From: Paludibacteraceae bacterium
GTDB taxonomy: Bacteria; Bacteroidota; Bacteroidia; Bacteroidales; Paludibacteraceae
Assembly (NCBI GenBank): GCA_016280845.1
Contig: JAEEHO010000185.1
Span: 1-50,668 of the forward strand
DNA length: 50,668 nt
Reading direction: 5' to 3'
Shown here: positions 12,901 through 45,720 of the stretch, piece by piece
How positions within the stretch are numbered: the first letter of the stretch is position 1
Layout: every line of letters begins with the position of its first letter
Made by a program: the position numbers and the translations under genes
Notes under the pieces: model-generated
What the model saw: only the letters and a program-made list of their open reading frames with translations
What the model was told of the DNA's origin: nothing
Database searches by the model: none

Positions 12901-15038
12901 CACATCTTGAATGCTACAGCACCTGCATAGCCTTCAGCATCAATCCAAAACTTTTGTGCCTCAGGTGAGAGCTTAGCATACTCTTCATCTGCAATCTTAC
13001 GAAGACGTGCCGCACGTACAGGGTCATCATAGTTACCATAGCGGTACTCATTACTTCCTGCACCAAGATACTTGAATACGTTGGTTGCATCTGCGGTTTC
13101 TCCTAAGCTGCCGAGAGAACTGAACAATGCATTCAGAGCAACTGTAGAAAGAGGGACACCCTGCTGAATCTGTGTAATGGGGCCTGTAACGAGACGAGCA
13201 GCGTACTCAGTAAGGTCTTTGTTGAGTGTAGACCCCTCGAATTGGTCAAAGAATGCACGTCCAATCGCACGCTTAGCAACATCTAACAAGGAGTTAACCT
13301 GAGTGGAGCTGTCCATATTGAGGTATAAGTCTGCCTCTTTATTGTAGCGCTCGACGCCCTCAGTAAGCTCACGAATGTAATCATCAATGCTGAGGCGGTA
13401 ATCCTCATTCATATAGATAGGCTTGTTGCGGTTAGCACGCATTCTGATAGAGAGCTCTCGGTACTGGGCCTTGTATTCTTCGGGAACTGTAAGCGATCCA
13501 AAAGCATCAGTAAGCATGGTGCGGTCGACTTTATCGCCCTTGCCACTCTTGATTCTATCTTCAGCTTCTATATAGCCTTTAAGTGCATAGTAAGTAGACA
13601 CTTCATCTCCGGTCATTCCGGAAGCTCTAAGTGCCTTAGTAGCCGCAGTGTACTCTTCAAGGACTGCGGAATATTCTGCGGTGTAATTAGCATACGCCTT
13701 TTCACGAGTCTCAACTAATCTCTGATAACGCTCAAAGACTTTCTGATACTCTGCAAACTCTTCGTTTGTAAGAGGGCGCTGCTTATCAAGTTCTATAAAC
13801 TCTCTGAGCTGGTCTTCTACAGCAGTCAGCTTACGGTTGATAACATTGGTAGGACTGTTGAGGTCGTACTCTCTGTCACGGGACATCTGCTGTAACTGTG
13901 CAGCATAGCTGTCTACGATTTTACGCTGTTCATCAACGCTGTCGCTCTGCGCATATCTGTATAAGCGTCCGGTAACAGTGTCATACAGCACGTACTTATC
14001 TTCTGCACCGATGCCTGCCAAGCGGTCACGGCCTATTGTGGCGTACTGCTGAGGGATATTTGATGCAGACATGGAGAACTTCGTATGCTGAATAGCATCT
14101 CCGTCCTCAATAACCCACAACTGCATTGTGCCGTTAGTGAGGCCATTAGTAACCTGCTGGTATGTGGTAGAGGTAACAGTGTTAACATTCCACTTGGTGT
14201 TACCCTTTACATTACTACCTGAACGGTTCACATCATAGGTATCACGGATATCATTATCTGAGTAACGCTTCTTGGTTGCATCCTGCAATGTGCTCAACAG
14301 TGCAGCCATGTCAGCTTTCTGACTGGAATGTAATCCTGCAAGCCCATTGAGCTTCTCATTACGCAGCATCCATGTGTATGTTTCAGGGAAACGCCTAGCA
14401 TTCTCTTCAACTGTACGTGCAAAGTCAGGCTTTACTTCAACATCAGGAAGGTTGTTCATGTACTGCACAAACCAATTATCAGCATACGCTGTACGAGGTG
14501 CAGGCATGGTTGAACTAGGGACATACGAAGTAAGCGCTGAGGTAATTCCTGAAAGCGCACCTATATTTCCTGCTGTTGACGTAGTGCTTGCAATCCTGCT
14601 TACAATCTTAGGTGTGGCGGGAACAACAGTAGGAAGCACTACAGGCTGCGCTGCTGGTTTAGGCGCAGGAGTAGGTGAATGTGTAGATGTAGAGTGTGAG
14701 GATGTACCCGATGAGCCCGACGAACCTCCGGATGAACTAGGTCTAGCCGCTTGTGCACCTGCTACAGCTGCTTGGGTGGCAGCAGACGTAGCAGGCTTAG
14801 GGGCTGGAGAGCTAGAATGTGAGGTATTTGTCTGCGTCGAGGGTTTGGACGTAGATGACGAGCTTGAGTGCGAAGTGTTTGAGTGCGTCGAAGGCTTAGA
14901 CGCAGGCTTCGACGAAGATGAGGAGCTGGATGGCTTCTTAGCAGCGGCAGCACCCGCAGCTGCACCTGCAGCGGCACCCGAAGATTTCTTCTTGCCGCCT
15001 GCATCGTTGACCATGGTGTTGACTTTACTAAGTGCCAT
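3960..15038 (-). CDS. Giant protein of 3692 aa with unknown function. It is a candidate virion internal/ejection protein.
   Basis: It is one uninterrupted ORF at the distal end of the late arm. It has an N-terminal Ser/Ala/Pro/Thr low-complexity region, a long mostly helical body, C-terminal repeats of about 70 aa and a basic Tyr/Arg/Lys tail. I could not recognise any catalytic motif. Confidence 0.85.
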   Translation of the reverse strand: MALSKVNTMVNDAGGKKKSSGAAAGAAAGAAAAKKPSSSSSSSKPASKPSTHSNTSHSSSSSTSKPSTQTNTSHSSSPAPKPATSAATQAAVAGAQAARPSSSGGSSGSSGTSSHSTSTHSPTPAPKPAAQPVVLPTVVPATPKIVSRIASTTSTAGNIGALSGITSALTSYVPSSTMPAPRTAYADNWFVQYMNNLPDVEVKPDFARTVEENARRFPETYTWMLRNEKLNGLAGLHSSQKADMAALLSTLQDATKKRYSDNDIRDTYDVNRSGSNVKGNTKWNVNTVTSTTYQQVTNGLTNGTMQLWVIEDGDAIQHTKFSMSASNIPQQYATIGRDRLAGIGAEDKYVLYDTVTGRLYRYAQSDSVDEQRKIVDSYAAQLQQMSRDREYDLNSPTNVINRKLTAVEDQLREFIELDKQRPLTNEEFAEYQKVFERYQRLVETREKAYANYTAEYSAVLEEYTAATKALRASGMTGDEVSTYYALKGYIEAEDRIKSGKGDKVDRTMLTDAFGSLTVPEEYKAQYRELSIRMRANRNKPIYMNEDYRLSIDDYIRELTEGVERYNKEADLYLNMDSSTQVNSLLDVAKRAIGRAFFDQFEGSTLNKDLTEYAARLVTGPITQIQQGVPLSTVALNALFSSLGSLGETADATNVFKYLGAGSNEYRYGNYDDPVRAARLRKIADEEYAKLSPEAQKFWIDAEGYAGAVAFKMWLGAYGDTPNFDYINTYAPEERGAYARVLTTFMDILLDPGSWIDIYKSGLTSLEAAKVVDSTATKYIDDTFDLINQAGVRVIKSDGVNPSSLRKILGDHAAAGELAILRNADTEAAIGKAYARAVKNAIESGGGEKLMREAVANARLGYMLNMFDPKWYAKLAKQVGRGLPANTTSKLMREYLGKMDVLNVASKGAYRETITKFTQNYIKYSVENAAKITKESGNALASVIYKTPGIVESLHSISEITGALNKFILVTGAPQLAAVVGSVRWTKKLLGYIQDINIAKKAAFAQESINKRITDICETHKAYSPALADAFADLRKEMSVLFASDKMSESAANFYKQFQQGAMDATVKYLTEDTLGPIRAIMHKVDEGADAFKVIEELDEHARSLGFDDFKALNDALVHNQPFFEGVCPDLKAVYMNYRRMYNNVIASKNLLGTERTIGIYRRMSGDIAKFFEAAAYKRGDVINSLENLHTLVQTMRDGFNANIARSITPEAYELASNRLIEAVKEYGDNLSSPRVENTLIERIRAFTENTEKYLQDLENYRDVIAYKGYVHRPYQEYIDAIAPKGTENRLAALNNLARGFRKELQRHHGLNVSADVIKEQLLTDHKHIKQVLFNAEGELETEQLGKFFNVTLQKYQGALLYTSDEAMRTVVKDALDINSAVNNAFKNVDALLSDRKHELLELAAQYEHEIPEYITTAVDKLDEYHAQIQDFLNTCAEQRSTQKFFNSFETAATLNQCPEDQINAVLDAFAGDKTYKINSYAKAYAQTRNSKYIENIVDSIIDDATEYLRQVSDKGVAPLWKAGCNTLNTADNVAAIEGFAKGYIEPDPEYIDVFYSCDSTVRNADPCMISFRVDGETTTFRNAAAPFVLHDSQSTRLYNLSSMEATEQYQQVAKQFPGTSKDEYLQNIQSYMNVITQRATDSNKRLRFIGFNSGASVTGSDRVIKDFLLYNGMDVRWNSAVDVAEIYRKAGGYAVIEDGTVMAIRKAITDTLDDAQLDVLLNNTAGRIVMDTDPKIAKQLKGLTDIINGTAPQTMPALSDFFKAGEEVVHAVEHSRTAIVGDALETVISEKRISDFIDIASKGRDKLHRVNSMRALYNAVNGQFNPIQLKKTFDTALMEEWFSEGTLKNLVTSSMTSAEITERMDTIYELSKRFNSTFELIENPELLDHIGADAYKEVYEALVVQVSSHPRTAGLRDMPIWANLELNTAAEYYSAIMVLRKKYANLVDLDTLFQLSGTLRANEIVKSDHFKDALCTIYDECAAELVYNSAHSIHRYATTTALIENKYAGFNNRVVSTRAIMDEYKKIADSAESLGTYLDLKEAAYQQGRWLTHDNRINYELYSEVHRPFTDLVDALNEATPSKLKFAEGSIDGYYNYIIKHDYDKQMAAKLKSLSQVNTAHKRAAVETLCMLSDEDFEKHLVRDCMNMMLIDPKCVALQGEAGILFGKRMADLTKNTRDIRLERVVIGNHEYISIYKDLSGYTPKQLDDLINSVDEFSVPVQSYKGAFNSYVPMEGGSDFMSYARKKVGEYLDKMSEYMPSRYLMSNFEVLTSETVQNLQQYFPEASRIAPGRINNWFNESYNCSIIGDIDTQRLFNPYASDKLIDNMARGLHHVQDKMEATTNYLRLFSNPSQSLRSMLNYAGVKKPDWKTIKQQLDVRGYTLVTLTLDKKGRYNAVQRALTNQEQLTRYLADDSVVVMERSVLGKVNEYILSQRKLMDYEKCHASALKGALSDIFVAWKNTTRAARILGLLFLSNIQGSAFRNRLDSTLKAVNEAGLDVLDYMGVALEYQQGYKDIVGQIVEKYKVLTVDTIDKYFKEFPDATLPQDLFEQLYVFNNQASTGMSALLDITKDTEIAKMRSLLPAGTKYTDDQLKEIADLFNRVSATGSYQKHILNPHYAYMPGKLRDKIQSQMYDECYQGILHMTQKGTKTPIYTPAEAKELANLFYTYTPSAHTASDWLQKLPVIGTMLDTNIQRGSLRRLIGNAQAFQDAETRTRTAMFLHYMEEGKTASYAEQHIVKSQFDYSKVGLIGHLETALPFSTFKIYNAAYWLAAAGEKFSTLKMITRFSKYTSRFYDTEDIAARIRDTHVAEWLADPNNGVKADEETPDATDGIMGWFAENIFGYQGVNELYAEGLRLGDNHYVKVGNSFTEAIQLCIDVMMAPEYIKRGQLPPILMDSVYTPLGVLFKFLADRDKNDFFNPTDRSYRDATSPVSGDFVNWAADRYYDILNLIPAFGMLANLVLTHIKNGAVNIADLKMMLCDENLKDAYMHKIFQATCDGLGTFFPSIVGTINDDKKGYYDREIGLNWYDNTNIEAIMQRINPETGKRYTKEEAEAFAKAYKGSHQFVAGISSLPAFMLKDPATYINYKYMFMRMGFGEKDVEENMGKLLDQLYGDGTYLNGIYINNGKNNDTYINIALLEDTFAALAAKGYDIDEVILQLQNQRWVNPATGELLKNSDLHKMLAQSAFLSAYEHLPDYVKYDKEQYAALIAYWKANGLTTEQAWMMMQSEYGYIDERGRYRILTEEQAKAYSQQLNDDYYEFLDQMPDWCKYEPGAASRTMNYFIGLGMSMEDAQRYILAHNAYVDVYGQLHQYSDEEVAQKNAQSQKEFYEYYNTLPDYIKYEKGAYGRTLKYLKSIPGMTDELARLFIRRGAYLTVDGRLINCTDMEQESNYTSKWVDYEKPLGYASFNDYYQTLPNYLKYEKGAFSRAYHILKSLGFAYNDILALIKQGAYAMEAGTAQSLFNTLPKDRAGIAVTDINTLLQKYGGVLIEYNGKYYTLLNCTGLNRSRSYRRTYNSSANRYTKRSYTKWNRKKYTRRPSSYIPNKFARPKNQRAVRHYYRSPYTQQPYVTKGSYSSTYSKVNLFAGASYGARQIYKIDIGRSPVRQALSTKSVYPAAYRNIVFAYRRSLYKDMYAKYGASRMRMRANVAHSYSNASIVRLRRNEIQYRVKYATKRSDPVVRKNKK
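4620..5800 (-). repeat. Tandem protein-level repeats of about 70 aa inside the giant ORF (at least 4 clear copies plus degenerate ones).
   Basis: The repeated core reads EHLPDYVKYDKEQYAAL / QMPDWCKYEPGAASRT / NTLPDYIKYEKGAYGRT / QTLPNYLKYEKGAFSRA. Each copy is followed by a ..G(L/M/F)..(E/D)......GAY...G pattern. Copies are spaced about 210-240 nt apart. Confidence 0.8.
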
Positions 15039-35206: not shown

Positions 35207-35524
35207 ATGATAGCAATCACTCTTAACAATCTCTTCGCAGCAACCATCATCCTTGTTTGCCTCATCGCACTCGTACTGGATATCATGGCATACGTAGCAG
35301 CAACCCATTCAATCGAAGCGCCTCAGAACGCTGAAGCCGAACTCCCTACATGGTGCTTACCGCCTAAGGTAAACAGAGAGCTTGTAGAGGACTTTGACCT
35401 CAACGAGATGCCTATCGCCTTCTTAGAACTCCTCACACTTGATAAAGCAGACGGTACTACACGACCTGCGCAATATCTCATAGAGGACGGAGAAATCACA
35501 GGAGTGATTATTGATGAAGACTAA
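35207..35524 (+). CDS. Small membrane protein (105 aa).
   Basis: TAAGGAGG lies upstream. The N-terminal TM segment is LFAATIILVCLIALVLDIMAYVAA. Confidence 0.55.
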   Translation: MIAITLNNLFAATIILVCLIALVLDIMAYVAATHSIEAPQNAEAELPTWCLPPKVNRELVEDFDLNEMPIAFLELLTLDKADGTTRPAQYLIEDGEITGVIIDED

Positions 35525-36029
35525 CTTCTATAACCAAGAGAAAGAATTCGTACCTATTAAAGGATACGAGCATGAGTATAAGATTAATCCTCACGGACAG
35601 ATACTCAGTCTACTCACTGACCAATACGTGACTACCTCAGTAGATTCCAAAGGCTATCTGATAGTACGCTTATATAAAGATGGACACTGCAAAGTCAAAC
35701 GTGTCCATATCCTTACAGCAGAAACCTTCATACCCAATCCTCAGAACTTACCCGTCGTAAACCATATTGACGGTAATAAGCAAAACCCGGATGTAACCAA
35801 CCTAGAATGGACTACGTTCTCAGAAAACACCTTACACGCACACAGAACAGGACTCATAACAAAAACTAACAATCAAAAGGTTGTTCGTGGCGATGGTAGG
35901 GTGTACGCCAGTGTGACAGAAGCAGCAAAAGACAACAACATCAGCAAGTCAGCAATAAGCAAAGTCATATCCGGCGAACGTAGAACCGCAGGTGGATACA
36001 CTTGGAGAAAGGAGAATGAAGATGGCTAA
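35511..36029 (+). CDS. Free-standing HNH homing endonuclease (NUMOD4 / HNH_3 / NUMOD1-like).
   Basis: Motifs are PIKGYEHEYKINPHGQILS, GYLIVRLYKDG, VHILTAETFIPNPQNLPVVNHIDGNKQNPDVTNLEWTTFSENTLHA and a C-terminal HTH-like ISKSAISKV. Confidence 0.85.
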   Translation: MMKTNFYNQEKEFVPIKGYEHEYKINPHGQILSLLTDQYVTTSVDSKGYLIVRLYKDGHCKVKRVHILTAETFIPNPQNLPVVNHIDGNKQNPDVTNLEWTTFSENTLHAHRTGLITKTNNQKVVRGDGRVYASVTEAAKDNNISKSAISKVISGERRTAGGYTWRKENEDG

Positions 36030-36432
36030 TACACCTAAAGTCACAGCAGCCATGGTACTTACCTGTAAAGAGCGTTTAGAGAATCCTAAATACAGCAGGC
36101 TCACACAGGAAGAACAGGCAGCGCTCTTAGGAGTCCACGTCACTACTTACAGACGAATCTTAAATGGACGGTACGATCACTTACTCAAGGACGGCACAGC
36201 AATCAGGCCCTCACCCGAAAACGTAGTACATGCTACAATCGAGTATGAAGAGCTTGAGCATTTATTCGCATGTGAAGCAGCAATCAAAGACATTCTTGCA
36301 AACTCACACATCTCTACTCAGGATGAAACAGCACTGTTTTTCCCTACATTCACAGTGTACAACATCTTGAAGACACATCTACCGGATAGCGTTGCAGAAC
36401 GCATTGACTATCTAAACGATACAAACGCATAG
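36022..36432 (+). CDS. HTH DNA-binding protein (136 aa), a candidate transcription regulator (start revised from 35992).
   Basis: The ATG at 36022 lies 7 nt after AAAGGAG and overlaps the upstream stop (ATGGCTAA). The HTH motif is LTQEEQAALLGVHVTTYRRILNG. Confidence 0.55.
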   Translation: MANTPKVTAAMVLTCKERLENPKYSRLTQEEQAALLGVHVTTYRRILNGRYDHLLKDGTAIRPSPENVVHATIEYEELEHLFACEAAIKDILANSHISTQDETALFFPTFTVYNILKTHLPDSVAERIDYLNDTNA

Positions 36433-36481
36433 TGCGTTGTATATACAACATTCACTACATTATTATAAGGAGGAACGTAAA

Positions 36482-36922
36482 ATGGAAATTTACGTAAACA
36501 ACAACGTCGTTGTAGTAACAACAGAGATCCCCGCGGCTGTCATTGAGGATGCAGGTACAGACGGACACGCACTTCTTGACGAGAAGGGCAACACACTTTA
36601 CACAGTTAAGCTCACAAAGGGCTGTAAATCAGCAGACTTCAGCAAATTCGGCTTCTGCGGTAACGCAGTTATCGATGGCAAGGTTGCAGCAGTAATCATT
36701 GAGCCTATCGGAACAACTCTCAAGGCTATCAAGAAGAAATACGGTCAGGCAGCAATCGCAGCTAAGCAGTTCATGCCCGTTATGCTCTCAGCAATCAATG
36801 CTTCAGCAGAGGCAGTTACACAGGCATTCACACCTTCTGCAGACCTCATTTTCTCACAGGCTGCTACAGAGGAAGTTACAGCTGAAGAGACAGCTGATGA
36901 CGAAGCTGACACTGAGGAATAA
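36482..36922 (+). CDS. Hypothetical protein with an acidic C-terminal tail (146 aa; start revised from 36437).
   Basis: The ATG at 36482 is preceded by TAAGGAGGA. The C-terminus is EEVTAEETADDEADTEE. Confidence 0.55.
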   Translation: MEIYVNNNVVVVTTEIPAAVIEDAGTDGHALLDEKGNTLYTVKLTKGCKSADFSKFGFCGNAVIDGKVAAVIIEPIGTTLKAIKKKYGQAAIAAKQFMPVMLSAINASAEAVTQAFTPSADLIFSQAATEEVTAEETADDEADTEE

Positions 36923-36947
36923 TTGACAGTCCGATCACAATCATCAC

Positions 36948-36972
36948 GCGCCCTCTAGCACATAGGGGGCGC
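36948..36972 (+). terminator. GC-rich hairpin after the acidic-tail gene (weak terminator).
   Basis: The sequence is GCGCCCTCTA-gcaca-TAGGGGGCGC. The downstream T-tract is not contiguous. Confidence 0.35.
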
Positions 36973-37000
36973 AACCTATTTCATTTTGGAGGAATCAAAC

Positions 37001-37237
37001 ATGATTAAATTGACTATTGGTACTAACACAGAGCGTAAAACCGTTATGGTTAACCCTAAGGACAACGCAAAAAACGTCCTCACTCAACAGGGTATCAACA
37101 TCGACCGTACAGCAATGCACTTGAACGGTTCACTTATTCCCGCTGTTGACCTCAACAACACCTTTGAAGGCCTCGGCATCGCAGATGAATCCGAAGCAAT
37201 GATTATCGCAGTTGTTAAGGCAGACTCAGCACAGTAA
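37001..37237 (+). CDS. Candidate ubiquitin-like (beta-grasp, ThiS/MoaD-like) small protein of 78 aa, with no C-terminal GG.
   Basis: The ATG at 37001 is preceded by GGAGGA. Translation is MIKLTIGTNTERKTVMVNP...AMHLNGSLIP...FEGLGIADESEAMIIAVVKADSAQ. The size, strand/helix pattern and genomic neighbours (JAB and E1-like) support the call. Confidence 0.35.
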   Translation: MIKLTIGTNTERKTVMVNPKDNAKNVLTQQGINIDRTAMHLNGSLIPAVDLNNTFEGLGIADESEAMIIAVVKADSAQ

Positions 37238-37247
37238 GCAATGTATT

Positions 37248-37280
37248 GGGCACTTCTATCTTAGAGGTGCCCTTTTTATT
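37248..37280 (+). terminator. Intrinsic terminator/attenuator between the Ubl-like gene and the enzyme genes.
   Basis: The sequence is GGGCACTTCTA-tct-TAGAGGTGCCC followed by TTTTTATT. The RBS of the next gene follows immediately. Confidence 0.6.
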
Positions 37281-37294
37281 AAGGAGACTTTACT

Positions 37295-38818
37295 ATGGCT
37301 TGGAAACGAATCGCAACAAATCTTTCACCTATTTTTCAGACAGCATGTGCCCGAGCATACAACCGAGTATCAACAATCCTGTACAAATCTCGTATCCCCT
37401 TTACTACATATGATGTACAGGATGCATTCTCATGGTTGATGTTTCCAATTTATGAAGGCGCTACTGAATTACAGTTTGAGATAGACGCACAGGTAAGAGT
37501 AAAATCTTACGTACTTCCCAAAGACGTGCCTATCGAAACTACCGCTGACCGATTTGTAAACAATTACATTGTGAACGATTCTCGAAACCGCTCACGCAGA
37601 CATGTTATCATTATAAACACATCCACAAACAAAGCGCTTGAAGAACAAATCTGCGCTAAACTTGATGCGTTCACACAACGCGAAAGAGCACCACGTGAAT
37701 CATTCTATCAAGTTTCTACTATCCCAGTTCCGGCATTAACGCTAACACCTGTACACCGTGTGCGCTGTTACGATAAAATATTCGTTAATGATGAAGGCGA
37801 AGTATTTGTCACAAACATCATCTTAACAAATCTTTACGGAACTGAGATCTGCTCACGCATAAGTGCAGCCTTACTAGCACAGTGTACAAGATATAAAGAG
37901 TTCGTAAACAACGATGAAATCTTTGCAGCCCTTGTAAAAGGATATGCCGAAGCAGATGCAGAAATAGTCAACAACTGCGTACATCAGATATACGATGCTA
38001 AACTAAATGAGCTCAACGCTGCACGTATGGCAGAAGCTGTCAAAACAATCACAACCTTAGCCACAAAAGACATTACAAAAGCTGCTGAACAAACAGTAGT
38101 AGAGGCACAGCGTCGTGTACAAAACATTGAAGAAGATTACAAAGACGCACTAGGTAGACTCCGCAATGCGCAGCTCAATCTCTTAGAAGCTATGACATTA
38201 GGAACAACCGAACGTGAGCAACAGATTGCAGACTTCTTAACCAGCATCACACCTAACATAACCCATCTTCAGAAAGGTGACAACAATGCCATCTACTTAT
38301 CATACAAGACACCGTTATTATACTTTGAACCTAAGCACATGGAACTGATGCTCAACTCGTCTCGCCCTAATCCTTGTAACACTGCTCACCCTAGTATCAG
38401 AAGCCTGTTAAAAGAAGTATTTATAGATAAGACTTATCAATTCATCTTTGACACAGGTGTTGACATCGACTTACGTTACAATGATATCTACTACTGGGCT
38501 CCACCGACCAACATTGTTCTTCAGGGTATCCCTAATCCTCATCATAAGTACTACAACTGTTGGGGAGACAACAAGCCTTACATCAAGAAAGCACTCGTCG
38601 CTCATGATATGATAGCTGCAATCACACAGATAATCGCTGCATTCAGTGGCATGAACTTAACTGATACCGCAGTAGTTCGTAGGTTTGTAGAAGAAGAACT
38701 CATGACAGATTCTTACAAACGTATCCCTTGTCTCAAGAAATTAGCAACCGGAGAACTCTTTACTATTGAACAGTATTGTAACAATTACACCGCAGCACAG
38801 GAGGCTAACAATGCATAG
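37295..38818 (+). CDS. 507-aa protein with an unknown N-domain, a central coiled coil and a C-terminal domain with an E2/UBC-like Cys motif (tentative).
   Basis: AAGGAGA lies upstream. The C-terminal sequence YQFIFDTGVDIDLRYNDIYYWAPPTNIVLQGIPNPHHKYYNCWGDNKPYIKKALVAHDMIAAITQIIAAF resembles the beta-meander, HPN-like flap, Cys and helix layout of E2 folds. Confidence 0.3.
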   Translation: MAWKRIATNLSPIFQTACARAYNRVSTILYKSRIPFTTYDVQDAFSWLMFPIYEGATELQFEIDAQVRVKSYVLPKDVPIETTADRFVNNYIVNDSRNRSRRHVIIINTSTNKALEEQICAKLDAFTQRERAPRESFYQVSTIPVPALTLTPVHRVRCYDKIFVNDEGEVFVTNIILTNLYGTEICSRISAALLAQCTRYKEFVNNDEIFAALVKGYAEADAEIVNNCVHQIYDAKLNELNAARMAEAVKTITTLATKDITKAAEQTVVEAQRRVQNIEEDYKDALGRLRNAQLNLLEAMTLGTTEREQQIADFLTSITPNITHLQKGDNNAIYLSYKTPLLYFEPKHMELMLNSSRPNPCNTAHPSIRSLLKEVFIDKTYQFIFDTGVDIDLRYNDIYYWAPPTNIVLQGIPNPHHKYYNCWGDNKPYIKKALVAHDMIAAITQIIAAFSGMNLTDTAVVRRFVEEELMTDSYKRIPCLKKLATGELFTIEQYCNNYTAAQEANNA

Positions 38819-39608
38819 TATAAGATTAAATGAGAAGAGCCTTGAAGAAATGATAGACCTTTTAAAGGAACAGTTTCAGAAGGCTAACAACACCACAGAC
38901 AAGATTTCATTTACCTATAAATTTTCACATCCCGCAGAAGAGAAGGTGTGCTTAAAAATTGAAGAAGCAGCATGGAGAAAAATCAACGCACTCGTGGCAA
39001 CCTGCGATAAAGAAGTCGCATGGCACTGCACCGCTACTAAGACTGATAGTTCGTACATTATTGAAGATGTGTTCGTCTTTCCTCAGATAATCAGTGCAGC
39101 AACCGTAACCACAGACGATACAGAATACGCTAAGTGGTTAATGGCTCTGCCCGATAATGTATTCAACAAGCTCAGAGTACACGGACACTCACACGTAAAC
39201 ATGGGCGTAACACCTTCCGGAACAGATACCACCTATCAGGAAAATATCCTCACAAACGTTAAAGACTTCTTTATCTTCATGATACAGAATAAGAAAGGTG
39301 ATATCTGGAAAGCCATCTTTGACGTAGAAGCAAACGTAGTCTACGAAAATGAAGACATCCTCGTAATTACTCCGGATGTAACTGCAAATGTATGGGCTGC
39401 AGCACAGATAGAAACCTATGCAAAACCTGCAGTTATGCCTACAATAATACAGCAGCCTACAGTAACAGCAGCAAGCACTAAACCTAAAGCTGTTGTAAAA
39501 GAAAAAGGAAAAAGAGGCCGTTCGCCTAAAACAAAGACTGAACATGATTATGAACAGCTGTACATGCGTCAGTACTACGGTTACGGCTATCCTGAAGACT
39601 GGGATTAA
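38811..39608 (+). CDS. JAB/MPN (JAMM) metalloprotease-domain protein (start revised from 38766).
   Basis: The ATG at 38811 is preceded by AGGAGG and overlaps the upstream stop. The complete JAMM motif HGHSHVNMGVTPSGTD (HxHx7Sx2D) is present, with an upstream Glu (KEVAWHC). Confidence 0.8.
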   Translation: MHSIRLNEKSLEEMIDLLKEQFQKANNTTDKISFTYKFSHPAEEKVCLKIEEAAWRKINALVATCDKEVAWHCTATKTDSSYIIEDVFVFPQIISAATVTTDDTEYAKWLMALPDNVFNKLRVHGHSHVNMGVTPSGTDTTYQENILTNVKDFFIFMIQNKKGDIWKAIFDVEANVVYENEDILVITPDVTANVWAAAQIETYAKPAVMPTIIQQPTVTAASTKPKAVVKEKGKRGRSPKTKTEHDYEQLYMRQYYGYGYPEDWD

Positions 39609-39621
39609 ATAAGGAGGCAAT

Positions 39622-40338
39622 ATGGACACTTCAAAAGTTTTAGAATATTTCGACCCCTCAGAATACAGATTCGCATACAATGTCATCGGTTGCGGAGCGA
39701 TCGGTTCCCACGTGTGCGAACAGCTTACACGCTTAGGTATCACTGAAGTCCACATCTATGACTTCGATACCGTAGAAGCACACAATATCACCAATCAGAT
39801 GTTCTGCGACAGTGACATCGGAATGAGCAAAGTCGATGCTTGTGAAGCTGCAATGAAAGCAATCAACCCGGAAATTACGGTTTACAAACATCCCGAAGGA
39901 CTTACTCCTCCGTATGTAATCAACGGAATTTGCATCTTATGTGTAGATAACATCGACCTTAGACGTGAAATCGTAAAAGCTAATCAGTTCAATCCAAACT
40001 GCGCTGCCTTCTTAGATTTCAGAATGCGTTTAGTAGATGCACAGCACTACTTTGCAGATGCAAAGAACCGCTTTGAAGTAACAGAACTTCTGAACACCAT
40101 GGCCTTCACACATGAAGAAGCCATGGACGCAACACCTAAGAGTGCGTGCGGTGTAGAACTCAGTGTAGTCTACACAGTCAAAGCAATCGTATCTTTTGGA
40201 ATGGCAAACATGGTTAAATGGTTGATGTCGAGAGATGACTATAGAACCATGATGCAGGTAAACATGGACAGTTTCATAGTCGATGCTTTCAGAGCAAGAC
40301 CCAGACCTACTGTCAACATTGCAGCCGACACGAAGTAA
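39622..40338 (+). CDS. ThiF/MoeB/E1-like adenylyltransferase-domain protein.
   Basis: TAAGGAGG lies upstream. The Rossmann loop is VIGCGAIGSHVCEQLTRLGI. Other motifs are YDFDTVEAHNITNQMF (the NxxNQ equivalent of the NRQ motif) and ILCVDNIDLRREI. Confidence 0.75.
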   Translation: MDTSKVLEYFDPSEYRFAYNVIGCGAIGSHVCEQLTRLGITEVHIYDFDTVEAHNITNQMFCDSDIGMSKVDACEAAMKAINPEITVYKHPEGLTPPYVINGICILCVDNIDLRREIVKANQFNPNCAAFLDFRMRLVDAQHYFADAKNRFEVTELLNTMAFTHEEAMDATPKSACGVELSVVYTVKAIVSFGMANMVKWLMSRDDYRTMMQVNMDSFIVDAFRARPRPTVNIAADTK

Positions 40339-40434
40339 GGCATACTTTTTACTAAGGTGGGGTACAGGTAATCTTTTAAGTACCACTCCTAAATAAAATT
40401 TAAAGCCACCCCCCGGTCATAGAAAGGAGACACT

Positions 40435-41505
40435 ATGTACATAAATTACTACAGTCGCTGCAGATACATGCCTAATGCTACCCCGGAACAACTTGAGAAA
40501 GAAAAAGAACGCAACCTCGGACGTATCGTAACCAAACATATTGGCAGTATGCAAATGTCAGAAAAACAATGGATCGCAATCTGTAAACTACAAGCTATCC
40601 TACATGACTATTGCATCGGACGTGTGTTTGCATTAGCCGTAGATGTTGAAAGATCATGGCAGACAGAATGTTACGATATGAGTTCACGCTATATTCAATT
40701 TGACATTCCTAAACGGAGAGGTGGCACTAGACATCTCTGTGCACCTGATGAAGAATTGATGCAACTCCAGAAACGAGTACTCCACGTACTGACTAAAGAG
40801 CTGCACATCCTACCTCATAATGCTGCACACGGTTTCACCCCACATCGTAACTGCAAGACAGCATTAGAGTATCATCGTAAGCATCACGCACGTTGGTTCT
40901 TAAAGTTAGATATCAAAGACTTCTTCCCAAGCACCACAGCTAACATGGTGTATCGTGCAATACGCGATAATGCCATACTACACCGATTAAACGATACATC
41001 TATAAATCGACTAATCAACTTCTGTGTACTTGACGAAACTTTACCTCAGGGTGCGCCAACGTCACCGTTCTTAACGAACCTTGTGATGCAGCCTTTCGAT
41101 GAAGCTATTACAACGTACTGTAAAGTAAATCATCTGTGTTACACAAGATATGCAGATGACATCCTGATTACGAGCCCTACTACCTTTGAAATAGCCCCAG
41201 TCATCAATGATATAAAGAATATTCTTTTTGGCTTCTACACCATTAACGATGAGAAAACAAGATACGGCAGTTTCAACGGAAGAAACTGGAACCTCGGGCT
41301 TATGTATAATAATAAGTTTGAGATTACCGTAGGCCATGCCAAAAAGAAACTTGTTAAGAATCTCATACACAACTTTTTTACAAAACCTGAATGTCACACA
41401 GTTCAGAATTGGTTACACCTCATGGGTGTCGTCGGCTACTGCGCTTATATTGAACCGGAGTACTTCAACAAGTACCTCGAACAACTCAAGGCAGCAGAAC
41501 TATAA
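40435..41505 (+). CDS. Reverse transcriptase, retron-type/retron-like, with no accessory domains.
   Basis: GAAAGGAGA lies upstream. Motifs are YIQFDIPKRRGGTRHLCAP, AAHGFTPHRNCKTAL, FLKLDIKDFFPST, LPQGAPTSPFLTNLVM, YTRYADDILITS and INDEKTRYG. Confidence 0.9.
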   Translation: MYINYYSRCRYMPNATPEQLEKEKERNLGRIVTKHIGSMQMSEKQWIAICKLQAILHDYCIGRVFALAVDVERSWQTECYDMSSRYIQFDIPKRRGGTRHLCAPDEELMQLQKRVLHVLTKELHILPHNAAHGFTPHRNCKTALEYHRKHHARWFLKLDIKDFFPSTTANMVYRAIRDNAILHRLNDTSINRLINFCVLDETLPQGAPTSPFLTNLVMQPFDEAITTYCKVNHLCYTRYADDILITSPTTFEIAPVINDIKNILFGFYTINDEKTRYGSFNGRNWNLGLMYNNKFEITVGHAKKKLVKNLIHNFFTKPECHTVQNWLHLMGVVGYCAYIEPEYFNKYLEQLKAAEL

Positions 41506-41507
41506 AA

Positions 41508-41692
41508 TGCGCTAGAAGATTACCTTGTATTACGATACAAGCCTCTGAATCAATTTCAGAGTGTCATGATAAGCAGATGTTTCTGCACTAGACCTGAGGT
41601 CCCCTGCAGCGCCTCCAGCCGCGGAAGGACACGCGGAGGAGGCGACTGCCAGGGTCGCTCAGGTCTACGTACAGTAATAAAATGGTAGCGCA
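41508..41692 (+). ncRNA. Retron-like msr/msd module 1 (a1 - G - two short hairpins - 77-nt GC-rich hairpin - a2).
   Basis: The a1 arm TGCGCTA (41508-41514) pairs with the a2 arm TAGCGCA (41686-41692), and a G follows a1 at 41515. Short hairpins lie at 41524-41541 and 41543-41561. The long hairpin lies at 41590-41666, closed by AGACCTGAG/CTCAGGTCT. Confidence 0.45.
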
Positions 41693-41805
41693 TAAAGGCA
41701 AGATAACACCTTGCCTGCTTACCAGACATTTTGATAACGACTATCCCATAAAGTCTCCTTTCAAAATGTCAACCCTTATAAGTTTAATCACTTCACTTAG
41801 AAGCC

Positions 41806-41843
41806 CCTTTAACTAGGTTAAAGGTATCCGCCTGTTTTTTTTT
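41806..41843 (+). terminator. Hairpin plus T9 tract ending the RT-proximal structured RNA region.
   Basis: The hairpin CCTTTAAC-tag-GTTAAAGG is followed by 10 nt and then TTTTTTTTT (41835-41843). Hairpins at 41696-41716 and 41725-41770 precede it. Confidence 0.35.
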
Positions 41844-41893
41844 CATCGCATTAATATTGTTATAAGGGACTAAATACACAAGGAGGAATCGCA

Positions 41894-42370
41894 ATGCGAC
41901 GTGCAGAATACGAAGCAATGAAGAAATCGTTACAAGCTAAGTTAGCAGCACTTGAATCTGAGCCAATCGAAGAAGACTATAATCGTTGGACTCCTGAGAC
42001 AGGTGAAACTTACTATCAGCTTGGCGATGAAGGAGATGTTTTTGAGAACCGTTGGAACGACAACCTCACAGATCAGTACCTCTACAACTTAGGCAACTGC
42101 TTCAGAACTAAAGAAGCAGCAGCATTCGCAGCTGAAACTCTCAAAGTTATAGCAGAGCTCAGAAACTTTGCAGACCCTGCAAATGTTTGGGATGGTAAAA
42201 CACGTCATTACTATCTCGCATATAACTATGACAGAGATGCAATACTTATCTTAGGCGAACAGGGCGTTCGTACACATGACATCTACTTCAGCTCTATAAA
42301 AGTTGCAAATAAAGCAATTACAGAAATCGGAGAAGGTAGAATTAAGAAATACTATTTAGGTATTCTTTAA
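41894..42370 (+). CDS. Hypothetical 158-aa protein flanked by structured RNA modules.
   Basis: AAGGAGGA lies upstream. No motif was recognised. The sequence includes WTPETGETYYQLGDEGDVFENRW...GNCFRTKEAA. Confidence 0.6.
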   Translation: MRRAEYEAMKKSLQAKLAALESEPIEEDYNRWTPETGETYYQLGDEGDVFENRWNDNLTDQYLYNLGNCFRTKEAAAFAAETLKVIAELRNFADPANVWDGKTRHYYLAYNYDRDAILILGEQGVRTHDIYFSSIKVANKAITEIGEGRIKKYYLGIL

Positions 42371-42379
42371 ATTAAGTGA

Positions 42380-42518
42380 CGCTTTAGAAGGTTACATTAC
42401 CGCAACATGGCTGCTAACTAAGTTAGCACACACGCAATGTTATAAATGCATTCATCCGTACATGCAGCTCGTCTCCGTAGGAGACATTGAGCTGCAGTAC
42501 GACGCTTAAAGTAAAGCG
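42380..42518 (+). ncRNA. Retron-like module 2 (shorter).
   Basis: The a1 arm CGCTTTA (42380-42386) is followed by G and pairs with TAAAGCG (42512-42518). Hairpins lie at 42412-42428 (TGCTAAC-taa-GTTAGCA) and 42463-42496 (nested 8+6 bp). The 5' word GCTTTAGAAGGTTAC resembles GCGCTAGAAGATTAC of module 1. Confidence 0.35.
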
Positions 42519-42529
42519 CACACATATGC

Positions 42530-42742
42530 CACACTTTAGTAAAGTTTATTCTGAATGAATACCCATTCAGATGTACTAACTAAGTTGGTACAAACACAAA
42601 GTCTTGAACACATGGCAGATCCGGAAGCCTCACTCCCTGAACGAGCCCAGAATGACGACGAATAAAATGCTATTCGTCGACATTCATGGGACCGTTCAGG
42701 AGTTCAGGTTCCGGATCTGCCACGGTATTAAAGTAAAGTGTG
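42530..42742 (+). ncRNA. Retron-like module 3 (a1 - G - two short hairpins - 108-nt hairpin - a2).
   Basis: The a1 arm CACACTTTA (42530-42538) is followed by G and pairs with TAAAGTGTG (42734-42742). Short hairpins lie at 42550-42571 and 42573-42591 (GTACTAAC-taa-GTTGGTAC). The long imperfect hairpin lies at 42614-42721, closed by GGCAGATCCGGAA/TTCCGGATCTGCC. Confidence 0.45.
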
Positions 42743-42766
42743 AATAATTTTATTTAGGAGGCACCT

Positions 42767-43237
42767 ATGACTTACGATCCTTATCCAACTAAGTGTAATA
42801 TCTGTGGCGGTCACGTCTCACTTACGACAACATTCATGATCTACGGACGTAACTATGGTACAGGATTGGTTTACAGTTGTGATAAGTGTGGTGCTAGGGT
42901 GGGCACATACCCGAGATTACCTGAGGAAAGAAAGAAAAAGAAACCACCGCGTGCAACCGGAATACTTGCAGATGAATACACACGTAACTTACGTATGAGG
43001 GCTCACGGTTATTTTGATAGCTTGTGGAGCGGTAAACGCAACAGTCTCAAAGTACGCGCACATTGTTATTGGACTCTTGCAGGTATCTTAGGTGTCCCCG
43101 AACCTCAAGCACACTTCGCTATGATGAACCGTGAAGAACTTAAGGATGCTCTCAGAACAATGCACGACCATTGGGATTATATGCTCGAAGACGCTAGTAA
43201 CTTTGAACAAATGACCTTAGGAAAGGAGAAGAAATGA
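42767..43237 (+). CDS. DUF3268-like zinc-finger protein.
   Basis: TAGGAGG lies upstream. Motifs are CNICGG...YSCDKCGARVGTYP, then GILADEYTRNLRMRAHGYFDSLW...CYWTLAGILG. Confidence 0.6.
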   Translation: MTYDPYPTKCNICGGHVSLTTTFMIYGRNYGTGLVYSCDKCGARVGTYPRLPEERKKKKPPRATGILADEYTRNLRMRAHGYFDSLWSGKRNSLKVRAHCYWTLAGILGVPEPQAHFAMMNREELKDALRTMHDHWDYMLEDASNFEQMTLGKEKK

Positions 43238-43521
43238 AATACGTATGGATAGTAATACTAGCAATACTTTACATATCTTGGGCGATCATGAGCGTTCAGG
43301 ATTGCATTGAAGCATATAAATTTGCACGGGACGATTATTACCCTGCTATATATCGCTCAAAGAAACGACAGTTCCTTGCAAGCCTGCATCTGTATACTGT
43401 AATCTTTATAATCCTGCATGTCGTCATTTTATTTGTATATAGTCTTTCACAATATGTAGGTAAGCCGCCCTTAGGCCAGCCCCTATATCTTGTAGTTGAC
43501 AGTAATATTAAGATGTTCTAA
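43234..43521 (+). CDS. Small membrane protein (95 aa).
   Basis: It overlaps the upstream gene by 4 nt. Two hydrophobic helices are present (VWIVILAILYISWAIM and LYTVIFIILHVVILFVYSL). Confidence 0.5.
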   Translation: MKYVWIVILAILYISWAIMSVQDCIEAYKFARDDYYPAIYRSKKRQFLASLHLYTVIFIILHVVILFVYSLSQYVGKPPLGQPLYLVVDSNIKMF

Positions 43522-43543
43522 GATAAAAATACGGAGGTGAATC

Positions 43544-43954
43544 ATGACCGAAGAAGAAAAGATTCGCCTTAACGAGATTATCTTTTGCAAACTCTTTCAG
43601 CAGTTACTTCGGCAACATGTTAATCCGATTAAGGTGTACGATTTAATCATTGCAGTAGCTGCTGTCGTGGGAGCTAACACAGCTGTCTTAGATACTGTTA
43701 TCTCTAGCATCTTGGATAATGACCGACACTATATGCCAACCAAAGAAGAGTATGCGTACCTTCTTAGGAAGTCTGATGTACCTGTGCGTAGGGTGTGTCA
43801 GTTGGTACACCTCAGTAATTCCACCTATTATAAGATGGATGGAACTGAGCGGTATATTACCCGTAGATTTACAGAGGCTCAGTACCAAGAGATGATGAAA
43901 GTGTTACGCTTCTTTAAAACATCCTATGAAGATATGGAAGGTAGTACAGTATGA
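43544..43954 (+). CDS. Hypothetical protein (136 aa) with a possible HTH.
   Basis: ACGGAGG lies upstream. The segment VRRVCQLVHLSNSTYYKM resembles an HTH. Confidence 0.45.
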   Translation: MTEEEKIRLNEIIFCKLFQQLLRQHVNPIKVYDLIIAVAAVVGANTAVLDTVISSILDNDRHYMPTKEEYAYLLRKSDVPVRRVCQLVHLSNSTYYKMDGTERYITRRFTEAQYQEMMKVLRFFKTSYEDMEGSTV

Positions 43955-44358
43955 AGATTGATTTTACAGATGTCAAAATGCGTATGTGTCTGGATGAATA
44001 TAACAGACTCAACCCGGAAGAACGTATCTCAATGTCACACTTCGACCTTGCAGAGGTCACGAACATTGATGACACAGACCAGTGGTTAGCATTCCTTAGA
44101 GATCCAAGAGTAGCAGACATGATACAGGAAGAGCTGACAGTGTATAAAGCAGCACAGCAGCGTAAACTTATTCAGCGTGCTACTACTCATGACAAGTCCG
44201 TAGGTACTGCACAAATGATTAGTGCCTTAGGTAAATCTATGGAAACGGACAATGATAAGTCCGGAGCAATCTTCGTATATTCATACGTGCCACTTAATGC
44301 ACATGATGTTAATTCTCCACAGGCACGAACACTAGATAAAGACGTTTTTGAAAGGTAA
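43951..44358 (+). CDS. Hypothetical protein (135 aa).
   Basis: It overlaps the upstream gene by 4 nt. No motif was recognised. Confidence 0.5.
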   Translation: MKIDFTDVKMRMCLDEYNRLNPEERISMSHFDLAEVTNIDDTDQWLAFLRDPRVADMIQEELTVYKAAQQRKLIQRATTHDKSVGTAQMISALGKSMETDNDKSGAIFVYSYVPLNAHDVNSPQARTLDKDVFER

Positions 44359-44361
44359 GCT

Positions 44362-45720
44362 ATGCAACTACGAGAATATCAACGCGAAGACGTTGACCGA
44401 ATGTTTATTCAAAACTGCATAGGAAACTTTAGCGAACAACGCACAGGTAAGACCCCTACTACCTGTGCTTCTTTGGCGCAAAAAGGCATCAAGCACACTC
44501 TCATTGTATGCCCAAACTCTCTTACATATGTTTGGAAGGATGCATGGGAAACGTGGACAGGATGGCCTGCACAAATCATTGAGGAGACATCCTTTGATTG
44601 TGGCACAGTCTCTGAAGATTGCGCCTTAATAGTTAACTTTGAAAAAATCAGAGGCACCAAGAAGCAGCATACCGTTACGGACATACTGCTGGAATGGAAG
44701 CCTGCTGCCATAGTTGTTGATGAAGCGCACCGCATGAAAGACAGAGCCTCGTTGACTGCCGAACAGCTGTGTCGCTTCATCAAAGTCCCTATAAGAATTG
44801 CGCTCACAGGAACTCCTGCGCCTAACTATCCTTGGGAAATATGGACCATATTGCATTGGTTATTTCCGGACAGATACAAGAGTTACTGGCGCTTTGTCAA
44901 CGACCATTTCCAGCAGAAGACTATCTATCTGCGTTCCAGATCCATACAGCAACCTACATCCTTTAAGCCCGGGATGGCTACAATATTACAGCAGAACCTT
45001 AACATGCTATGCATTCAGCATAAGCGTAGAGAGATTATGCAATGGCTACCTGATGAGTCACCACCTACCGTAGTGAAACTTCCACCATCTCCGGAACAAG
45101 TTGTAGCAATAGAGCATCTAATGAACTACTTTGAGTATAAGCATATTATCACGAAGAGTGTATTAGATAACCTTGTTCGGGTGCGGCAGGTATGTGCATC
45201 CCCTGCGTTGTTAGACCTTGATAAGAAACCAAGTCCTAAGATAAAGTGGCTACTCGATTACTTAAAAGATTACCCTGAGAAACATGTACTTGTATTCAGT
45301 AACAGTAAGAAGTTTCTCTACCTCATAAAATCCTACATCAAAGAACCTTTAGGATTTATTTGTGGAGATGTACCACCCTTAGAACGTGCTAAGCTTATTG
45401 AGGCTTATCAAAGGTCTAAGTTCCGAATCATGCTCTGTCAAACACAGGCATGTAAAGAAGGTATCACCTTAGATAATGCTGATGTTTCTATCTTTATGGA
45501 TTTGTATCCACCTGCTGCCGATTATATGCAGGCTAAAGATAGGATGGTTGCAACAGCGCCTGAGCGTGTAAAACCTAAAGAGATAATCCATGTAGTACTG
45601 CAAGGAACTTATGATGCTACACTCTTCTCATTAGTGCAGCATAATGTAAATGAAACTGCAGTGCTCAATGATTATAAAAACTTTATCAAAGAAAGGAGGA
45701 ACCGTAATGGCGAACAATAA
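44362..45720 (+). CDS. SNF2-family DNA helicase/translocase.
   Basis: Motifs are LREYQREDV, EQRTGKTPT (Walker A-like), VVDEAHRMKD (DEAH box), ALTGTPAPN and a C-terminal helicase-domain pattern (LCQTQACKEGITL). Confidence 0.85.
   Translation: MQLREYQREDVDRMFIQNCIGNFSEQRTGKTPTTCASLAQKGIKHTLIVCPNSLTYVWKDAWETWTGWPAQIIEETSFDCGTVSEDCALIVNFEKIRGTKKQHTVTDILLEWKPAAIVVDEAHRMKDRASLTAEQLCRFIKVPIRIALTGTPAPNYPWEIWTILHWLFPDRYKSYWRFVNDHFQQKTIYLRSRSIQQPTSFKPGMATILQQNLNMLCIQHKRREIMQWLPDESPPTVVKLPPSPEQVVAIEHLMNYFEYKHIITKSVLDNLVRVRQVCASPALLDLDKKPSPKIKWLLDYLKDYPEKHVLVFSNSKKFLYLIKSYIKEPLGFICGDVPPLERAKLIEAYQRSKFRIMLCQTQACKEGITLDNADVSIFMDLYPPAADYMQAKDRMVATAPERVKPKEIIHVVLQGTYDATLFSLVQHNVNETAVLNDYKNFIKERRNRNGEQ

Follow-up and report, generated by a model that had tools for sequence, protein, structure and literature searches.

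The reverse transcriptase locus

The window analyzed here is the whole of contig JAEEHO010000185.1 (50,668 nucleotides, assembly GCA_016280845.1, deposited as a Paludibacteraceae bacterium). It forms a complete circular assembly: its ends overlap exactly over 141 nt (1-141/50528-50668), giving a genome length of 50,527 bp. It carries, in this order, a gene for a ubiquitin-like (Ubl) protein, a gene for a 507-aa protein (p507), a JAMM peptidase gene, a gene for an E1-like adenylase, a reverse transcriptase (RT) gene and a series of structured non-coding RNAs (ncRNAs). The RT and its RNAs are probably a genuine retron, with templates placed after the RT gene, which is tied to the four conserved phage genes upstream of it (referred to below as the Ubl block). 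The features of the retron itself are the following.

40435-41505, plus strand: retron-type reverse transcriptase, ATG-to-TAA open reading frame (ORF), 356 aa
41507-41693, plus strand: ncRNA unit U1 (msr-msd), -91.9 kcal/mol, z = -9.3
41773-41868, plus strand: ncRNA unit U1b, a short weaker candidate, -18.9 kcal/mol, z = -2.5
42376-42521, plus strand: ncRNA unit U2, -54.0 kcal/mol, z = -6.6
42530-42742, plus strand: ncRNA unit U3, -103.2 kcal/mol, z = -12.6

Identity and class of the reverse transcriptase

The only Pfam domain detected in the RT was RVT_1 (residues 91-278, E = 3.5e-22), preceded by an N-terminal extension of about 80 aa, and the landmarks of the protein were YADD at residues 239-242 (Y239-D242), NAAH at 129-132 and NLG at 286-288. 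A first-pass annotation of this DNA, made from the letters and their translations, had described a 356-aa ORF with the full RT motif series and no fused maturase X, endonuclease, primase or protease; every motif string that it quoted is present in the translation, and the single Pfam domain bears out the absence of fusions. When the protein was aligned with 12 homologues (41-78% identity), YADD, QGxxxSP (Q205, G206, S210, P211), DIKDFF and NAAH were invariant or nearly so. The NAxxH motif of region X is thus present as NAAH, with H132 invariant and N129 and A131 at least 90% conserved.

Profile searches, which the annotation had named as the check on its class assignment, gave retron models as the best matches, with group II, defense-associated reverse transcriptase (DRT) and abortive infection (Abi) models far lower. 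The best PADLOC models were all retron RTs (type II-A at 1.3e-53, then III-A, I-A, XI and XII, within 1e-53 to 1e-34), the scores being spread across these types without a clear winner. The closest PDB relatives were the retron RTs Ec83, Ec86, Ec78, Ec67 and Kva2 (2e-30 to 2e-17; Ec83 and Ec86, 2e-30 to 5e-22), and group II RTs followed at approximately 1e-8. Among NCBIfam models retron_St85_RT was the top match at 199 bits (cut-off 235), followed by group II at 80 bits (group_II_RT_mat, cut-off 300), Drt3a at 65 and Drt2 at 47. By score, the nearest retrons were those with St85/Sen2-like type II-A, type III-A and type I-A (Ec83/Ec78) RTs.

In HMMER alignments the segment NWNLGL of the window RT falls where the Ec83 and Ec86 RTs have VTG (RT7, region Y), indicating that only the G of the triplet is kept and confirming the replacement of VTG by NLG that the annotation had reported. 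The G of NLG was invariant in the homologue alignment and the literal VTG of retrons is absent; G is the most conserved residue of VTG (Mestre 2020, PMC7736814).

A neighbor-joining tree of 169 RTs, read as an unrooted bipartition without bootstrap support and with a short stem (0.04), contained one split which separated all 60 ordinary bacterial retron RTs from all 105 E1-linked RTs and four truncated viral loci. Midpoint rooting of this tree was uninformative and was replaced by the unrooted reading. The split and the sub-cut-off St85 score both fit the divergent clade that had been suspected at the outset. The RT is of the retron type and stands on a separate branch.

We give practically no credence to the alternative that the enzyme belongs to a diversity-generating retroelement (DGR), a group II intron or a DRT/unknown-group (UG) type. 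The RVT_1 domain is common to all of these, but no template/variable repeat (TR/VR) pair was found, direct repeats in 36000-45000 did not exceed 38 nt, and the motif is QGAPTSP and not [IVL]GxxxSQ. Rfam returned no intron or other match, either at the gathering threshold or at E up to 1, Pfam gave no maturase or endonuclease domain in the RT, and the group II, Drt and Abi models scored far below the retron models. The assignment to the retron type, as first proposed, stands on PADLOC, NCBIfam and PDB matches alike.

Template RNAs in the window

The non-coding stretches 41506-41893 and 42371-42766 folded better than shuffled sequence (z = -7.3 and -12.6, respectively), in agreement with the structured RNA that had been reported to begin 2 nt after the RT stop. 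These structured RNAs are the msr-msd templates of the RT and comprise three strong units and one weak unit. The same layout of a1 repeat, branch G, msr hairpins, long msd hairpin, G and a2 repeat recurred at each strong unit, and every window unit folded alone with a1/a2 closed.

The a1 of U1 (41507-41514, ATGCGCTA) starts 2 nt past the RT stop and is followed by a putative branching G at 41515, three small msr hairpins and a long GC-rich msd hairpin at 41589-41667; TAAAATGG then precedes a2 (41686-41693, TAGCGCAT), which is the exact complement of a1 and lies 171 nt downstream. U2 has its a1 at 42376-42386 (GTGACGCTTTA), G at 42387, an msr hairpin GCTGCTAAC-TAA-GTTAGCAC, the msd at approximately 42459-42500 and a2 at 42512-42521. 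The corresponding elements of U3 are a1 at 42530-42538 (CACACTTTA), G at 42539, an msr hairpin GTACTAAC-TAA-GTTGGTAC, a long msd at approximately 42614-42724 and a2 at 42734-42742. A 38-nt paralogous stretch is common to U2 and U3, and the a1 of the third unit in one relative (L007, ACACTTTA) is identical to that of U3. The weaker candidate U1b consists of a1 at 41773-41781, G at 41782, a hairpin CCTTTAAC-TAG-GTTAAAGG, and TAATATTG followed by a2 at 41860-41868, and resembles the short second units (85-89 nt) of L002, L007 and L008.

The E1-like gene ends at 40338, leaving the 96-nt gap to the RT that the annotation had given. All ncRNA units of the window lie 3' of the RT, so the canonical msr-msd position upstream of the RT is not used. 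A 158-aa ORF (41894-42370, plus strand) lies between U1b and U2; it was found only in the window and in its closest relative, L001, and in the other relatives the ncRNA units are arranged back to back without it.

Template RNAs in related loci

A first simple scan of the whole window for a1/a2 repeats was non-specific (85 and 76 matches on the two strands), and a relaxed scan which allowed one mismatch or G-U pair had a background of 15%-50% and was dropped for a strict rule, under which at least eight perfect pairs were needed and G had to follow a1 and precede a2. Of 140 viral loci, 88 had a strict repeat at the RT stop, as did six of the ten bacterial cassette loci, compared with three of 63 ordinary bacterial retrons and 2%-8% at control offsets. 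In a scan which did not require G, both inner sides carried G in 36 of 57 repeats (63%) vs. 13 of 145 far controls (9%), the DNA being 22% G. The a1/a2 sequences themselves vary between loci (ATGCACCA, TAATGCATCA, CACACATA, ATAAAACAATA, TTCCTGTAAT and others) yet remain perfectly complementary, and two or three tandem units were present in 24 of the first 86 loci.

The msr hairpin after the branch G showed compensatory changes at all eight of its pairs (22 units), and since G-U pairs occur on the plus strand the structure belongs to RNA of the same strand as the RT. In L001, compensatory changes were also observed in the msd stems of U1 and U2. MAFFT alignments of whole units and of 40-nt a1/a2 composites had shifted registers and were not used for pair counts. 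Distant relatives carry a unit of 210-390 nt in the canonical gap between E1 stop and RT start, besides downstream units; in the window subclade the canonical-position unit has been lost and the downstream units alone are kept.

Linkage of the retron and the Ubl block

The genes and signals upstream of the RT are the following.

36986-37237, plus strand: Ubl-like gene, listed as an 83-aa ORF from TTG; a conserved MIKLT start at 37001 gives 78 aa
37248-37272, plus strand: terminator-like hairpin and T run directly after the Ubl gene, 11 pairs (6 G-C), tail TTTTTATTAA
37295-38818, plus strand: p507, 507-aa protein with no family or fold match
38766-39608, plus strand: JAMM/MPN+ metallopeptidase with an invariant JAMM motif; ATG at 38811 is probably the true start
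39622-40338, plus strand: E1-like ThiF-family adenylating enzyme, 238 aa, with a GxGxxG motif and invariant Cys176

Linkage was tested from three independent seeds, the RT, the E1 and the backbone helicase SNF2, and the results agree. Loci collected with the RT had the four genes upstream in nearly every viral case, and this was also true of 60-130-kb contigs in which the replication genes are unrelated. With the E1 as seed, an RT was present in 68 of the 72 loci which had enough downstream sequence. The SNF2 seed returned 41 loci with both E1 and RT, four with E1 only, four with neither (the most divergent) and none with RT only. The Ubl block was present in 45/45 family loci that retained the cassette region (SNF2 identity at least 33%), and the retron in approximately 91%-94% of phage-family members. 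In loci with enough upstream sequence, whether on the ~50-kb phage backbone, in larger contigs or in Clostridia genomes, an RT without E1 was never found.

The retron clade is almost entirely phage-borne, with hundreds of viral contigs and some Clostridia assemblies. Within bacterial genomes the cassette was found beside the closest RTs only, all of which are in Clostridia, and other retron RTs were without it. The order Ubl-p507-JAMM-E1-RT was kept down to about 30% RT identity, some loci having an extra ORF or ncRNA unit between E1 and RT, and the identities of the cassette proteins dropped in step with those of backbone proteins. Variants which have the E1 and are without RT and ncRNAs were identified in L192, L210, L232, L274, L275, L282 and L309, and these kept the rest of the Ubl block where upstream sequence was available. 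In L210 the E1 gene is directly adjoined by the next backbone gene, indicating that the RT and the ncRNAs are absent together. The Ubl block is accordingly a core component of the phage family and the retron a near-core addition which never occurs alone. The annotation had proposed that the RT might belong to a larger unit, which proved an understatement: the RNAs are its own msr-msd, and the upstream part includes E1, JAMM, p507 and the Ubl-like gene.

One relative of the cassette is located on a 428-kb contig of a cultured isolate, Clostridiales Family XIII bacterium PM5-7 (L094), where the RT is 32% identical and has a1/a2 units of its own. A 113.7-kb IMG/VR viral contig (L241) has a1/a2 units identical to those of L094, and both sequences may derive from a single genome. 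In the ~100-kb phages an additional ORF, 250-270 aa long and without a family match, separates the E1 from the upstream ncRNA unit (L062 4627-5436; L044 4791-5552). In L044 the RT is followed at 7210-8685 by genes for an NMNAT-like cytidylyltransferase and a PnuC nicotinamide mononucleotide (NMN) transporter. Phages use such nicotinamide adenine dinucleotide (NAD) salvage genes against NAD-depleting defenses, and their presence hints that this neighborhood holds conflict genes.

Proteins of the Ubl block

The Ubl-like protein is encoded upstream of the RT in most loci and ends in a conserved VVKAD(S/N/G)(A/G), followed by zero to three extra residues or by a fused domain. It gave no Pfam, PHROG or NCBIfam family match; its weak profile matches were mostly to beta-grasp proteins (ThiS at 0.044, ubiquilin, polyubiquitin, TtuB), and hhalign aligned it with ubiquitin over the full length (pairwise E ~1e-3, probability 22%). 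The pattern of its alignment fits a beta-grasp protein. The Ubl of four larger phages is fused, right after KADNA, to a domain of about 130 aa (L044 994-1611, L046 1662-2309, L061 1115-1813, L081 2164-2829) which had no Pfam match, and such fusions would be natural substrates for JAMM cleavage. The hairpin between the Ubl gene and p507 is a strong one; it may act as an attenuator and might keep Ubl in excess over the enzymes.

The p507 protein evolves fast (20%-46% identity within the cassette, except for L001 at 85%) and begins with an alpha/beta domain, followed by a helix of 80 residues (222-301) and by a C-terminal domain with an invariant GIPNPHHKYYNCWGDN (residues 411-426). AlphaFold2 models had a predicted local distance difference test (pLDDT) score of 84 for the full length and of 95 for the C-terminal domain (predicted template modeling score 0.88). 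Foldseek searches of the PDB with the full-length and C-terminal models gave nothing below E 0.04, the best match of the C-terminal domain being at E 0.1, and the sequence had no Pfam, PHROG, NCBIfam or PDB match. An HH...C motif and the order of secondary-structure elements had suggested p507 as the missing E2; Foldseek gave nothing in this respect and PDB and Pfam profiles gave only coiled-coil noise. No E2 (UBC fold) was thus found for p507 in Pfam, among PDB sequences or by fold search, p507 not having been scanned against PADLOC.

Residues E83, H141, H143, S151 and D154 of the JAMM protein are invariant and make up the pattern E...HxH(x7)S(xx)D, and its profile matches Rpn11 (E = 1.3e-3). 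The C-terminus (39450-39608) consists of a lysine/arginine-rich tail followed by a conserved YYGxGxY motif, and could bind nucleic acid or a partner. The E1 matched Pfam ThiF at 4.2e-21, the NCBIfam models ThiF, MoeB and UbaA, and the E1 part of PADLOC E1-E2 models.

The phage genome

The window is the complete genome, about 50.5 kb, of a gut phage. The genome encodes a terminase, a portal protein and a major head protein, and a 736-aa PolA gene crosses the circular junction. The phage also encodes a GH25 endolysin with PG_binding_1, which we read as pointing to a Gram-positive host. The replication arm consists of SNF2, AAA_24, DUF669, primase-MCM and PolA genes, and the retron locus is directly upstream of it. 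Among gene-map ORFs of at least 100 aa, searched with Pfam and PHROGs and with a 3,692-aa ORF left unscanned, there were no integrase, recombinase or repressor families, the sole exception being one weak, sub-cut-off Xre-like helix-turn-helix match; within this scope the earlier description of a phage without lysogeny genes holds. The region had no DNA match in the deposited phage collection, and protein-level matches among deposited phages were at most 32% identical and were to ordinary phage or prophage RTs.

The 3,692-aa single ORF (3960-15038, minus strand) adjoins the structural module and takes up more than one fifth of the genome. An HNH/NUMOD homing-endonuclease gene (35511-36029, plus strand) belongs to the early genes and closely precedes the cassette. 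Eight palindromic hexamers were absent from the whole window (ACTAGT, CAATTG, CGCGCG, CGGCCG, CTCGAG, GACGTC, GCATGC and GCCGGC; 6-15 expected each), while CTGCAG (48 sites) and CAGCTG (40 sites) were over-represented four to five times (9.7 expected). The missing hexamers look like restriction avoidance, alongside an unexplained enrichment of CTGCAG and CAGCTG.

Discussion

Comparison with known systems

Like bacterial retrons (types I-XIII), the locus has an RT with their fold and their motifs (YADD, NAxxH and, of VTG, the G), a1/a2 repeats with a G at each inner end, msr and msd hairpins, and dedicated accessory genes in the operon. It differs from them by NLG for VTG, sub-cut-off scores and a branch of its own, by up to four tandem ncRNA units which in the window subclade are downstream of the RT, and by being part of a near-core phage gene set, in the window within a genome without detected lysogeny genes. 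The testable features of a retron were found save for the literal VTG and, in the window, the upstream position of the ncRNA. The window retron fits none of the 13 catalogued types, and the text of the 13-type classification contains no ThiF, JAB or ubiquitin (Mestre 2020, PMC7736814).

The Ubl block resembles several systems in part. Type II cyclic oligonucleotide-based antiphage signaling systems (CBASS; Cap2 E1-E2 fusion and Cap3 JAMM) and 6A-MBL cap2_3 likewise place an E1-like protein and a JAMM around a nucleotide-polymerizing enzyme, and the window E1 matches these models weakly. However, the window E1 is a stand-alone protein of 238 aa without an E2 domain, there is a separate small Ubl-like protein, and the partner is an RT with template RNAs and not a cGAS/DncV-like nucleotidyltransferase (CD-NTase), all of it phage-borne. 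The Bil (BilABCD) and Bub operons have the same order of Ubl, large second protein, JAMM and E1, and the putative Ubl of the window resembles theirs in a C-terminus of small residues with a tail that could be trimmed. They differ in that p507 has no detectable UBC/E2 fold, that an RT and ncRNAs are attached, and that the window genes are encoded by a phage and not by the host; at E up to 0.01 the JAMM protein had no match among PADLOC Bil models, a scan which did not extend to the Ubl and p507. The E2-independent systems, archaeal SAMP/UbaA/JAMM1 and Thermus TtuB/TtuC, combine a small ThiS/MoaD-like Ubl, an E1 of MoeB/ThiF size and a JAMM with no need for an E2, and the window E1 gives weak UbaA, ThiF and MoeB matches (NCBIfam). 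In contrast to these, the window shows no sulfur-transfer partners and the context is an early phage operon with an RT.

Proposed working

By comparison with characterized retrons, read-through from the early operon would produce RNAs each folded with an a1/a2 duplex. The RT would recognize and bind the conserved msr hairpin and prime from the 2'-OH of the G after a1 (G41515, G42387, G42539 and perhaps G41782), and copying of the msd hairpin would begin with the G immediately 5' of a2. The 5' end of the multicopy single-stranded DNA (msDNA) is predicted to complement the bases just 5' of a2 (in U1, for example, 5'-CCATTTTA), and the products would be three or four distinct branched msDNAs.

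Because the linkage is asymmetric, we infer that the retron serves the Ubl module and not the reverse. Our tentative proposal, which we hold at less than even confidence, is that the retron is an add-on nucleic-acid arm of an early-expressed phage Ubl-conjugation system, in which the msDNA-RT complex gates, scaffolds or directs conjugation for host take-over or counter-defense, and not a classical abortive-infection island. Such control of conjugation would be similar to the way in which defense retrons hold their effectors. The roles suggested by the annotation had been counter-defense or superinfection exclusion. A more pointed form, which we think rather unlikely though worth stating, is an offensive retron whose early msDNAs work with a phage-core, E2-less Ubl system, either as scaffolds or sensors directing Ubl to host or phage targets or with the msDNA or RT itself being conjugated.

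Alternative explanations

P2/P4-type prophages carry retrons, and the cassette might likewise be cargo for exclusion or abortive infection, that is, a tripartite retron defense of RT, ncRNA and a Ubl/E1/JAMM/p507 effector which shuts out rival phages. We regard this as unlikely. Relatives do occur inside large bacterial contigs, including the isolate genome L094, Ubl machinery is known as a defense accessory, the window E1 matches PADLOC E1-E2 and NCBIfam 6A-MBL cap2_3 models, and the characterized retrons are all defense systems with accessory effectors (Mestre 2020, PMC7736814). However, the cassette is core and apparently vertically inherited, not patchy (45/45 loci, with identities that fall along with the backbone), which makes it less like ordinary defense cargo, and it is located inside the early replication operon of a genome without detected lysogeny genes. 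To our knowledge defense retrons have not been described with tandem ncRNA arrays. Odds that are lower still attach to the retron and the Ubl block being two unrelated neighbors, in which an autonomous retron was inserted once beside the block and kept by descent without shared function. The seven variants with a Ubl block and no RT would fit this, as would the loss of RT and ncRNAs together as a module; on the other hand, the RT was never without E1 across the ~50-kb backbone, larger contigs and Clostridia genomes, gene order was kept to about 30% RT identity, and the RT has no other conserved neighbor that would be a candidate effector.

Abundant hairpin msDNAs could also act as a decoy or sponge which soaks up host DNA-sensing or DNA-cutting defenses (RecBCD-like, restriction or Gabija-like) independently of the Ubl block. 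The tandem units, several in number and with long GC-rich msd hairpins, would yield a set of multicopy DNAs, and the eight absent hexamers speak for restriction avoidance in this genome, but avoided or special sites are not concentrated in the msd hairpins, CTGCAG is five-fold over-represented genome-wide, and the strict dependence on the Ubl block would be left unexplained; we therefore hold this reading to be improbable. CTGCAG in the msd as a restriction decoy was considered in its own right and rejected, the enrichment being genome-wide and no avoided palindrome being concentrated in the units. Least probable among the functional readings, and hardly credible to us, is a replication role, with msDNAs as primers or origin-opening DNAs for the adjacent module. 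The locus does immediately precede the genes for SNF2, AAA_24, DUF669, primase-MCM and PolA, but approximately 9% of family members have no RT, larger cassette-bearing phages have unrelated replication genes, msd sequences match nothing else in the genome, and, if known retrons are a guide, the 3' end of the msDNA would be tied up in the hybrid. The msd as a guide against the phage's own genome was likewise rejected, as there were no matches beyond chance.

Several points weigh against a genuine retron tied to a Ubl block. With regard to the RT, its score falls below the NCBIfam retron cut-off (199 vs. 235 bits), VTG is NLG, and the tree has a short stem (0.04) and no bootstrap values. With regard to the RNAs, their position downstream of the RT in the window is a non-canonical order, the rows of the msr covariation test were picked as hairpin-forming, which favors pairing, and priming and msDNA products are modeled on known retrons. 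The Ubl assignment is statistically weak at the level of sequence comparison, and neither the sequence nor the models of p507 gave a UBC-like match, so that no E2 was found. In approximately 6%-9% of related phages the Ubl block is present and the retron missing, and the two are therefore separable; a single insertion long ago, passed on vertically ever since, could account for their adjacency without a shared function.

Significance

Retrons are currently viewed as bacterial abortive-infection systems composed of one template RNA and a toxic effector. The locus described here departs from this view in three respects: a retron clade that is almost entirely phage-borne, its inheritance as a near-core gene set, and natural arrays of two to four templates together with a strict tie to a Ubl module without a recognizable E2. 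In the literature, of which our coverage was incomplete so that an earlier description is possible, we found nothing that links retrons to Ubl/E1/JAB machinery, and no natural tandem msr-msd arrays, ncRNA downstream of the RT or retrons as core phage genes.

Because a relative is found in a cultured isolate (Clostridiales Family XIII bacterium PM5-7), bench work is possible. If the link to the Ubl block is functional, it would offer a testable connection from reverse-transcribed DNA to Ubl conjugation, a viral use for retrons, and compact natural multi-msDNA scaffolds of the kind which genome-editing groups had to engineer. Should the offensive role hold, this would be the first retron with a viral non-defense role and the first tie of reverse-transcribed DNA to Ubl-like modification. 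The phage retron is always found beside the Ubl gene set, and retrons may therefore do more than defend bacteria.

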